Shown one piece after another: positions 41,436 to 42,797 of a stretch of 64,000 nucleotides of DNA. The notes beneath the pieces were generated by a model. That model was given only the letters and a program-made list of their open reading frames with translations. It did no database searches and was not told the DNA's origin. Position 1 is the stretch's first letter. Each line of letters begins with the position of its first letter. A program made the translations under genes and the position numbers. The stretch is from an uncultured Alphaproteobacteria bacterium (GTDB taxonomy: Bacteria; Pseudomonadota; Alphaproteobacteria; RF32; CAG-239): contig CALXPT010000006.1 in the NCBI GenBank assembly GCA_944390355.1, positions 5,826 to 69,825 on the forward strand, written 5' to 3'.

Positions 41436-42797
41436 CTAGCGTTCCATAGACCCGCGGCCGTGCACCAAACTGGGGTCTAAATCATAACTCTTTTTAGATT
41501 CTTTATTTTGAGGTTCTTTTTGCCTGAGTTGTTCATTTTCTTTTTTCTGCTCTTGCATCAATTCTTTTTGACGTTCTTTACGCGCCTCCAGCACGGCCTG
41601 CTTATTTTTTTCAATATTTTCAATAACTTTTTCTTTGCGTTCATCACTTTTTGCTTTTTGCGCGGATTTGACTTGTTCCAAAATTTCTTCGTCTTTGATT
41701 TTGGGCTTATGCACATCACGGCGAAAAACCTTACGACCGGCATCAACAATTTTATCAATAGAAACACCACGGCTTTTAGAAACATCCCAAACGCCGATTT
41801 CTCGTCCGTCATTCAAAAAGAAGTCTGTCCAATCAATTCCTCTGGATTCTTTTTTCTTATCCTTATTTCGAGGAGCATAAAACTGCTGCATTTCAGCCAA
41901 TGTCGGCGGCCGTCCGAGAGCCTGAGCAATCTGCTCGGGCGTAATAATACAATCCCGCAGACTCAAGCCGATAATATTAACTCCTCTGAAATCAACGCCG
42001 GTAAAATCGACCCCGCGTAAATCGAGCTGCCGCAAATCAATTTTTTTCAAATCCAACAATTTCAAATTAATGCGAGACAAGTTCAATTTATGCGGAAAAT
42101 TTTTAGCTAGGAATTCAACAAGTTCCTGTAACTCCTCAATACCGATTTCATCGATTCGCAAATCCAGCAGAAAAGCACCGTCCAAATCAGCTTCGCTCAG
42201 TTGAATACCGTTAAAACAAGCCCCGTTAAATTTAGTACCTTTCAAAACAGCACCGGAAAGATTAGCCCCGCTCAAATCGGCACCGCTCAAATCAGCTCCG
42301 GTTAAGTCCGCACCGCTTAAATCCACACCTTTAAGGGACACATTCTTAAAATCGGCATTGATAAGAGACGCACCGGCAAAATTAGCCCCGTCAAGATTTT
42401 GCCCGACAAAAGAAGCATTTTCAAACACCTGAGCCGCATAAACCCGATTCGAATTTTCCAAAGCATACGCAGCCTCAGATTTATCCTTCGTAATGGCAAT
42501 ATTTTTTTCAACAAAAGAAGAAGTATTATTTTGCACGGAAGGAATAACATTTTCGGCAGCCCCGTCATTTTTGGCATCATCAACCGACTTTTCAGACACA
42601 TCTTGAGAAAGCTTTTCAACAAACAGGTTCTTATCGGCAATAGCCTCTTTTCCGGCCACAAGCATATGATCAACTTCATCATTAAACCAATCATCGTCAA
42701 AATGAACTTCATCATCTCTCAAATTAGAGACAGCATGCCATTTAATATCTTTCGTATCATCAACCATAGCCAAGACCGAACAAATTATTCCAATCAC
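41436..42797 (-). CDS. Pentapeptide-repeat protein with a Lys/Arg/Glu-rich coiled-coil C-terminal tail
   Basis: About 150 aa of tandem A(D/N)LxG-type pentapeptides ('DLSGADLTGADLSGADLSGANLSGAVLKG', 'DLRQLDLRGVDFTGVDFRGVNI'). No signal peptide. Confidence 0.75.
   Translation of the reverse strand: MIGIICSVLAMVDDTKDIKWHAVSNLRDDEVHFDDDWFNDEVDHMLVAGKEAIADKNLFVEKLSQDVSEKSVDDAKNDGAAENVIPSVQNNTSSFVEKNIAITKDKSEAAYALENSNRVYAAQVFENASFVGQNLDGANFAGASLINADFKNVSLKGVDLSGADLTGADLSGADLSGANLSGAVLKGTKFNGACFNGIQLSEADLDGAFLLDLRIDEIGIEELQELVEFLAKNFPHKLNLSRINLKLLDLKKIDLRQLDLRGVDFTGVDFRGVNIIGLSLRDCIITPEQIAQALGRPPTLAEMQQFYAPRNKDKKKESRGIDWTDFFLNDGREIGVWDVSKSRGVSIDKIVDAGRKVFRRDVHKPKIKDEEILEQVKSAQKAKSDERKEKVIENIEKNKQAVLEARKERQKELMQEQKKENEQLRQKEPQNKESKKSYDLDPSLVHGRGSMER

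Follow-up and report, generated by a model that had tools for sequence, protein, structure and literature searches.

A pentapeptide-repeat protein as candidate partner of a divergent chromosomal VirD4-type coupling-protein homolog in uncultured gut Alphaproteobacteria

Type IV coupling proteins (T4CPs) are usually studied as the substrate receptors of type IV secretion systems (T4SSs) that serve conjugation or effector delivery. What, then, is the role of a pentapeptide-repeat protein (PRP) whose gene lies directly upstream of a T4CP-like gene on a bacterial chromosome? This question is raised by positions 41,436 to 42,797 of a 64,000-nucleotide stretch of contig CALXPT010000006.1 from an uncultured alphaproteobacterium (the window), for which a preliminary description had proposed a candidate secretion substrate. 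Here, we show that the PRP gene and the gene of the T4CP homolog form a tight, vertically inherited pair in the core chromosome and not on an island. Together with a lipoprotein that resembles outer-membrane factors (OMFs) of the TolC type and carries a SPOR domain they make up a three-gene module that has been passed on vertically within a single lineage of uncultured gut Alphaproteobacteria. The explanation that we tentatively favour is that the PRP may serve a domesticated chromosomal VirD4-type homolog as a dedicated partner in the cytoplasm, be it ligand, regulator or adaptor, rather than be a classical horizontally acquired effector.

The linkage of the two genes is strongly supported. 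A survey of the T4CP homolog with one genome per species gave 106 loci, all of them in metagenome-assembled genomes (MAGs) of uncultured (Alpha)proteobacteria, mostly from gut samples. Carriers include 'Proteobacteria bacterium CAG:495', 'Azospirillum sp. UMGS63' and Candidatus Scatocola (Rhodospirillales per NCBI), and we take the carrier group to be RF32 of GTDB. In 80 of the 81 loci that hold both genes, across dozens of species, the PRP gene immediately precedes that of the T4CP homolog, and the trio of lipoprotein, PRP and T4CP homolog was found by tblastn in the same housekeeping synteny in 78/86 loci. The conserved order is truA, a GFO/IDH/MocA oxidoreductase gene, a gene for an unknown protein of ~600 residues, the PRP gene, the T4CP-homolog gene, rarA, an rluC-like gene and asmA. 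Most loci outside the 78 are ended by a contig edge; the true exceptions are an inversion (locus L014), an insertion (L016) and a distant orphan T4CP in another context (L086). The spacing of the genes is as follows.

PRP to T4CP homolog: median gap 5 nt, often overlapping; gap of 150 nt or less in 80/81 loci
Lipoprotein to PRP: median gap 69 nt; gap of 150 nt or less in 77/78 loci
T4CP homolog to rarA: median gap 64 nt (8 nt in the window, a 4-nt overlap in the subclade of the window); gap of 150 nt or less in 71/78 loci

In the window the PRP and T4CP-homolog genes are separated by 81 nt on the same strand, just as the preliminary description had it, and the functional link that it suspected between them is borne out by the gene order. 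Orthologs that are never linked to T4SS components, an outcome it had also envisaged, are not what we see, since the PRP adjoins a T4CP homolog in nearly every locus. Both families are narrow. When the non-repeat half of the PRP (aa 206-453) was searched against 1.84 billion cluster representatives, ~26 representatives were found at E<=1e-30 and generic repeat matches came after them; the T4CP homolog gave ~100 clusters and then, as the next match, an ordinary T4CP at E=1e-7. Thus, the PRP family is as lineage-restricted as the T4CP homolog. With a mean pairwise difference of 0.44 the PRP is better conserved than the T4CP homolog (0.62) and the lipoprotein (0.61), the housekeeping genes lying at 0.13-0.31. 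A PRP that is more conserved than the neighbouring ATPase is unlike typical effectors.

The PRP is encoded by a minus-strand open reading frame (ORF) at 41436..42797, which yields 453 residues if it is started at GTG. We prefer the ATG at 42767 (M11), which gives 443 residues, because the orthologs all begin at the equivalent of M11 and because a promoter-like site ends 5 nt before the GTG at 42797. The features of the protein are listed here, with residues counted from the GTG.

41436..42767, minus strand: PRP coding sequence, 443 aa (Pfam PF00805 and ortholog starts; the mechanical ORF runs from GTG 42797)
42726..42740, minus strand: W-H-A-V-S motif, aa 20-24 (52/58 orthologs; W20 and V23 invariant in alignment A1)
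42153..42452, minus strand: pentapeptide beta-helix block 1, aa 116-215, ~20 pentapeptides (Pfam; model confidence 89-93)
42078..42152, minus strand: helical insert IDEIGIEELQELVEFLAKNFPHKLNL, aa 216-240 (helix 220-233 in the model)
41943..42077, minus strand: pentapeptide block 2, aa 241-285, then the conserved CIITPxQIAQALGR (mean identity 65%)
41508..41717, minus strand: long charged K/E/R helix, aa 361-430, with conserved core IEKNKQAVLEARKE (modelled as a single helix 370-430)
41439..41507, minus strand: extreme C-terminus, aa 431-453, Arg/Gly-rich, ending in HGRGSMER (positive in most orthologs)

Three stretches of the PRP match PF00805, with a score of 108.7 bits where the cut-off is 20.2 (E=8.9e-32), and further matches were obtained with PF13576 (E=7e-15) and PF13599 (E=1e-14). 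It is thus a member of the pentapeptide-repeat family, with tandem A(D/N)LXX pentapeptides above the gathering threshold. An AlphaFold (AF2) model built on 25 orthologs has a mean predicted local distance difference test (pLDDT) of 65. In this model the right-handed quadrilateral beta-helix is formed with one strand per five residues across aa 119-214, where the pLDDT is ~90 or higher. The ORF of the preliminary description and its assignment to the pentapeptide-repeat proteins hold. From N- to C-terminus the model consists of a disordered acidic N-terminus (aa 1-116), the beta-helix, a short helix, a second repeat block, a few helices and a helix of 60 residues. A Kyte-Doolittle scan of the PRP found no hydrophobic segment and hence neither a signal peptide, as had been stated, nor a transmembrane helix. 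Foldseek retrieved pentapeptide-repeat structures only, among them MfpA, QnrB1, AlbG and EfsQnr; since these matches are generic to pentapeptide folds and do not discriminate, we rejected them as a guide to function. Identity with HetL or with the type III secretion effectors PipB and PipB2 was rejected as well, the scores of 78.5, 49.2 and 47.1 bits lying below NCBIfam cut-offs of 260, 274 and 354 and reflecting the repeats only.

Conservation along the PRP is uneven. The N-terminal region (aa 11-115) is variable, acidic (net charge -14) and disordered in the model (pLDDT <50), and the repeat region (aa 116-300) is acidic too (net -7, pI 4.7). The helical insert is the most conserved part, with 72% mean identity and ten invariant residues (L223, Q224, L226, E228, A231, K232, P235, H236, K237 and L238). 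Identity is lower in the charged helix (33%, with I395 and E396 invariant) and in the last 23 residues (19%). The preliminary description had spoken of a basic coiled-coil C-terminus. The long K/E/R-rich helix and an Arg-rich, positive extreme end are indeed there, but 'basic' was an overstatement for the tail as a whole, as the final 93 residues are 48% charged with a net charge of just +3 (pI 9.1). The last 30 residues of the window copy carry +2. Among 58 orthologs the last 20 residues have a mean charge of +2.5 and are net positive in 88%, with ~4.4 Arg within the last 30; the endings include RGGxER, RDRGRE, RSGRGR and RRIIPFRSGRGR.

The neighbour of the PRP had been called a T4CP. Homology is clear from the match to PF02534 (T4SS-DNA_transf; 56.4 bits against a cut-off of 20.1), with weaker matches to TraG-D_C and TrwB_AAD_bind, but the protein is highly divergent and no T4SS is encoded in its scanned surroundings. 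Its main features are these.

38910..41354, minus strand: divergent VirD4-type T4CP homolog, 814 aa (PF02534 E=3e-15, PF12696, PF10412)
41016..41312, minus strand: N-terminal pair of transmembrane helices (aa 15-43 and 88-113) joined by a short loop (Kyte-Doolittle scan)
40836..40844, minus strand: Walker A G171-K172-T173 (G in 57/58, K in 58/58, T/S in 58/58; invariant in alignments A2 and A4)
40155..40553, minus strand: conserved insert separating the Walker A and B motifs, placed where T4CPs have the all-alpha domain (motifs ANDYxL, LxSYY, YLPVGSW, WxGKE)
39837..39842, minus strand: degenerate Walker B D505-D506, hhhhDD (canonical hhhhDE)
38913..39314, minus strand: acidic variable C-terminal tail, aa 681-814, net -39, ending in DDWWLxxDAF...NPF

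With VirD4/TrwB-type T4CPs the protein shares a two-helix anchor forming an N-terminal transmembrane domain, a Walker A motif (GGDGLGKT in the window copy, in keeping with GxxGxGK(T/S)), an insert at the all-alpha position and a variable C-terminal extension. The differences are equally distinct. Four NCBIfam T4CP models (CD1115-family VirD4-like, IncP TraG and two VirD4 models) score it far below their cut-offs. A search of the Protein Data Bank (PDB) with the single sequence gave nothing relevant, and a profile search gave as its sole match Cag5/Cag-beta (8dol, E=8e-4), across the Walker B region. The nearest plasmid relatives, at 22% identity, are genuine virD4 genes located after virB4-B8-B9-B10-B11 on plasmids of Erythrobacter and Sphingosinicella. 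The T4CP homolog is therefore a descendant of VirD4-type coupling proteins, from which it has diverged far. The T4CP Walker B consensus has been given as LhhhDE (PMC7434980). The catalytic glutamate of this consensus is absent throughout the family. Among 58 orthologs, 53 have D at position 506 (VIDDW in the window copy), 3 have N, 2 have G and none has E; three canonical T4CPs placed in the same alignment (A4) have DE. This argues against a processive translocation motor. The insert holds 15 of the 43 invariant columns of A2 within aa 285-357, the tail is acidic in 58/58 orthologs, and the terminal WW..F..NPF motif, which is the family's own, is kept in 51/58.

A further difference lies in the surroundings, as the T4CP homolog is fixed in housekeeping synteny and T4SS, relaxase or mobile-element genes were not seen nearby. 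The scanned ORFs of the window hold no VirB/T4SS, relaxase, integrase, transposase or mobile-element genes (eleven ORFs of at least 180 aa, most of them nested or antisense, lie outside that scan), and the precomputed Pfam families within 10 kb at loci L001-L006 include no T4SS, relaxase or mobile-element family. The controls H1, H2 and P0222 do carry virB genes or a relaxase beside canonical T4CPs; P0222, the weakest match of our T4CP search, is an ordinary T4CP of an integrative conjugative element or plasmid beside relaxase, TrbL and VirB4 and serves for contrast only. We speak of a T4CP homolog and not of a functional T4CP because both the Walker B glutamate and an association with T4SS or relaxase genes in the scanned surroundings are missing.

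The orphan T4CP of L086 (6926-11875, an alphaproteobacterial MAG) is a different protein of 719 aa, with PF02534 at E=8e-44 and a canonical DE Walker B. It has an ANDYF/GYY/VPVGTW insert like that of the T4CP-homolog family, an insert that is absent from the VirD4 of Sphingomonadales plasmids. Its neighbours are a TraT-like lipoprotein gene, two other genes and rplT-pheST, and its eight neighbouring ORFs include no PRP or T4SS gene. Possibly it represents an intermediate in the evolution of the domesticated family; it gives no functional clue.

The third member of the module and the genes that flank the pair are the following.

42837..44837, minus strand: lipoprotein, 666 aa from MNKLF, with signal peptide, lipobox Cys19, TolC/OMF-like long-helix domain, disordered linker and C-terminal SPOR domain
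42840..43076, minus strand: SPOR-like peptidoglycan-binding domain of the lipoprotein, aa ~588-666 (Pfam PF05036 and RlpA fold match)
42803..42831, minus strand: promoter-like TTGTCA-17-TATGAT in the gap between lipoprotein and PRP genes, 10/12 (consensus match only)
37564..38901, minus strand: rarA/mgsA, AAA+ recombination factor (MgsA_C E=2e-57), 8 nt downstream of the T4CP homolog (38902-38909)

The lipobox Cys19 is invariant. The AlphaFold model of the lipoprotein (pLDDT 76) shows long helices, a disordered linker and a C-terminal alpha/beta domain whose fold matches the SPOR domain of RlpA (6i09 and 6i05) with TM-scores of 0.59-0.60. PF05036 is recognised in 9 of 15 orthologs (best E=2.2e-6), though not above threshold in the window copy (E=0.13), and beyond SPOR nothing was found by Pfam in these 15 orthologs, including OEP (PF02321). 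The lipobox Cys and the RlpA-like SPOR fold link the protein to RlpA-type SPOR lipoproteins, and its long-helix domain is TolC/OMF-like. Unlike TolC/OMF factors it has no beta-barrel strands in the model, where a 12-stranded trimeric barrel would be expected, and no adjacent genes of RND, ABC or membrane-fusion protein type. An outer-membrane pore is not evident, since barrel strands and an OEP match are both lacking. To our knowledge, no protein that joins an OMF-like domain to SPOR has been described. Two aromatic stretches of the lipoprotein (aa ~102-121 and ~420-433) are conserved, LDYAIMYAGAYL and LYFYAGYEPF, and look like an internal repeat; these YAGxY segments may be remnants of barrel strands inherited from an OMF-like ancestor, or such strands wrongly modelled. 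At the other end of the module, the rarA and T4CP-homolog ORFs overlap by 4 nt in the closest relatives of the window (L007, L009-L011, L015 and L019), which suggests translational coupling. Co-transcription of rarA with the T4CP homolog is probable; whether rarA belongs to the module is uncertain.

How could a PRP act on such a protein? By hydropathy, the T4CP homolog is predicted to be anchored in the inner membrane through its two N-terminal helices, and with its intact Walker A it should still bind nucleotide. Having lost the catalytic Walker B glutamate, it would probably be a slow switch or receptor and not a motor. The insert at the all-alpha position, where T4CPs receive substrates, and the acidic tail with its WW..F..NPF motif may form the docking surface. 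The PRP might dock there with its helical insert and block 2, with the charged helix and its Arg-rich end, with the WHAVS motif, or with several of these. As a rigid, DNA-like rod, its acidic beta-helix would then occupy or present the site that conjugative T4CPs use for DNA or relaxosome accessory proteins, and such a rod could control the nucleotide state or the assembly of the ATPase. We draw this by analogy with MfpA-type DNA mimics and with the pair TrwA-TrwB of plasmid R388, whose trwA gene immediately precedes trwB. The ATPase activity of TrwB is enhanced by TrwA, an accessory protein (PMC7434980). The likeness would be that of a small soluble protein which modulates a coupling protein. 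However, TrwA is a DNA-binding relaxosome protein of a conjugative plasmid, while the PRP is a pentapeptide beta-helix and possibly a DNA mimic, and its module has no relaxase or oriT context.

Several observations count for the PRP as a partner, and perhaps a stoichiometric one, of a nucleotide-binding T4CP homolog. The pairing in 80/81 loci, the synteny of the trio and the matching narrow distributions do so, as does the fact that conservation of the PRP peaks at the helical insert and block 2 and not at the C-terminal end. The loss of the Walker B glutamate next to an intact Walker A, the complementary charges (opposite signs are kept in the T4CP tail and in the PRP end across the orthologs) and the rate covariation of the trio point the same way. 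With housekeeping divergence removed, the partial correlation is 0.56 for PRP and T4CP homolog, 0.63 for lipoprotein and T4CP homolog and 0.52 for lipoprotein and PRP, as against 0.28-0.41 with AsmA; this mirror-tree covariation is only modestly above the AsmA control, and since every pair is 'significant' by permutation the test is a weak one. This limit weighs against the partner explanation, and so do several others. The aspartate in place of the Walker B glutamate might still permit hydrolysis. The conserved Arg-rich PRP C-terminus would also pass for a translocation signal, and tight operon linkage is equally compatible with a cognate substrate. In L016 (4956-7360), and at no other locus, the pair is split: two unrelated genes of the opposite strand, for a GAF-HD phosphohydrolase and a metallo-beta-lactamase-fold protein, are inserted there (their window homologs are at 20238-22663). 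Finally, the proposal names no cellular output of the module.

The explanation closest to the preliminary description is that the PRP is a translocated substrate, with its Arg-rich end recognised by the VirD4-like neighbour and a VirB-type T4SS encoded elsewhere, its genes scattered as in Rickettsiales. VirB/D4 signals of Agrobacterium are Arg-rich, positive C-termini, and the PRP ends across the orthologs resemble them and would fit recognition by a VirD4-type receptor; the conserved linkage and the lack of a signal peptide agree with this as well. Pentapeptide and coiled-coil proteins that are secreted have precedents in Rickettsia: SrfD, which combines two pentapeptide domains with two coiled coils, reaches host cells by secretion (PMC11258249), and cREM-4, which contains a pentapeptide repeat, is among the candidate substrates of rvh (PMC11077975). 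Like the PRP, SrfD/cREM-4 combine two pentapeptide blocks with helical or coiled-coil segments in an alphaproteobacterial lineage that has a VirD4-type coupling protein. The likeness is one of description only, however; these proteins are Rickettsia-specific, measure ~950 aa and are not reported adjacent to rvhD4, and the bacteria that encode them live inside cells and possess a complete rvh T4SS, whereas the carriers of the PRP are gut-lumen commensal MAGs without a known target cell. The scanned ORFs of the window and the 10 kb around L001-L006 offer no T4SS gene, and the housekeeping synteny recurs in most other loci, while the canonical control T4CPs adjoin virB4-B11 or a relaxase. The receptor lacks its Walker B glutamate in 58/58 orthologs, and the PRP is a vertically inherited core protein that is more conserved than this putative receptor. 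We therefore do not uphold the assignment as a secretion substrate. A role as secreted T4SS effector is conceivable but not supported by these data, and we consider it unlikely. The other role that the preliminary description had considered, that of a cytoplasmic Qnr/MfpA-like gyrase protector, fares worse. A PRP that acts as a DNA mimic, guards gyrase or topoisomerase IV and neighbours the T4CP homolog by chance is very improbable. The PRP shares with Qnr, MfpA and AlbG a right-handed quadrilateral beta-helix, an acidic surface, a cytoplasmic location and the Foldseek matches, but these matches are generic to any pentapeptide protein. The weak matches to NCBIfam models for Qnr (NF033086, 41.7 against 240 bits) and MfpA (NF000349, 47.2 against 360 bits) lie at least fivefold below the cut-offs. 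Qnr/MfpA proteins are dimers of ~180-220 aa that are essentially all beta-helix, and the genomic partner of the MfpA type is an MfpB-type GTPase, the context otherwise being one of resistance. With 443 aa the PRP is about twice as long; an alpha-helical insert interrupts its beta-helix (~5+2 coils), it has a disordered acidic N-terminus and a charged helix of 60 residues, and its gene partner, at a median gap of 5 nt in dozens of species, is the T4CP homolog.

The lipoprotein invites a wider explanation, a T4SS-independent device that spans the envelope, with a hexamer of the T4CP homolog in the inner membrane, a TolC/OMF-like periplasmic tube anchored by its lipid in the outer membrane and by SPOR on peptidoglycan, and with the PRP serving as cytoplasmic plug, gate or cargo. 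SPOR domains bind denuded glycan at septa, and for this reason, together with the probable co-transcription of rarA, such a device could act on DNA at the division site. The order ftsK-lolA-rarA of E. coli places the gene of a related DNA translocase before rarA and resembles the order of T4CP homolog and rarA. The conserved trio with its short lipoprotein-PRP gaps, the presence of SPOR, the lipoprotein-T4CP covariation as the strongest of the three pairs and the closeness of rarA all speak for this explanation. However, an outer-membrane pore is not evident from the model or from Pfam, a membrane-fusion or adaptor protein is missing, the periplasmic loop of the T4CP homolog has only ~44 aa, and the degenerate Walker B argues against a motor. 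The lipoprotein may also have a separate, unrelated role, as the promoter-like site between its gene and that of the PRP would allow. Of the explanations that involve the neighbours, this full device seems to us doubtful, somewhat more so than the effector. About as unlikely as the effector is a domesticated T4SS-independent chromosomal machine in a looser sense, in which a nucleotide-gated receptor with a degenerate Walker B, a DNA-mimicking PRP and a TolC-like lipoprotein that binds septal peptidoglycan, with rarA co-transcribed, would work at the division site, either on DNA or on the envelope.

A dedicated partner of the T4CP homolog thus remains our preferred, tentative explanation for the PRP. 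Taken singly, the parts of the module are familiar: a beta-helix of pentapeptide repeats, a P-loop protein of the VirD4 type, a helical domain like that of OMFs, and SPOR. Neither the trio nor the pair is described in the literature that we searched on PRPs with coupling proteins, on RF32/CAG-239 genomes and on orphan chromosomal T4CPs; the only analogies met were Rickettsia SrfD/cREM-4 and DotG. PADLOC defence models did not match the lipoprotein, the PRP or the T4CP homolog, so that a known defence system finds no support for the trio. If confirmed, the partnership would mean that an ATPase of mobile elements was exapted into a core cellular function, and it would give a defined partner to a pentapeptide-repeat protein, most of which have none known. 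For annotation, a T4CP beside a protein with a charged tail should not be taken to indicate an effector before the secretion channel and the mobile-element context have been checked.

The remainder of the window is in line with a core chromosomal setting. All its ORFs that match Pfam are housekeeping genes, including those for DnaB, YidC, an EngB-like GTPase, MurJ, RodA, PBP2, MreB/C, MiaA, Ddl, AsmA, an RluC-like protein, RarA, TruA, RecX, Hsp33, AckA/Pta, HolA and LptE. On the speculative idea of an FtsK replacement, a regular-expression search for FtsK Walker motifs, which covered the window and every retrieved locus but no further parts of the genomes, gave no match. The ORFs scanned around the sole tRNA gene of the window, tRNA-Arg(CCG) at 4858-4934 (plus strand), gave no sign of an integrase or an island. 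DUF2336 (14306-15418, minus), DUF2333 (16909-17907, minus) and DUF3108 (30099-30953, plus) proteins are encoded amid murJ, the mreB-rodA cluster and ddl. Between truA and the gene of a Cys-rich secreted protein lies a 64-aa ORF (46902-47096, plus) with ~20 Cys in CxC/CxxC/KECTCG repeats, which is metallothionein-like and has no Pfam match; the antisense ORF of 160 aa at 46641-47123 is probably spurious. The Cys-rich protein itself (47156-48655, minus, 499 aa) has a hydrophobic N-terminus and a sub-threshold match to the Lcl C-terminal domain PF07603 (27 bits against 34.9).

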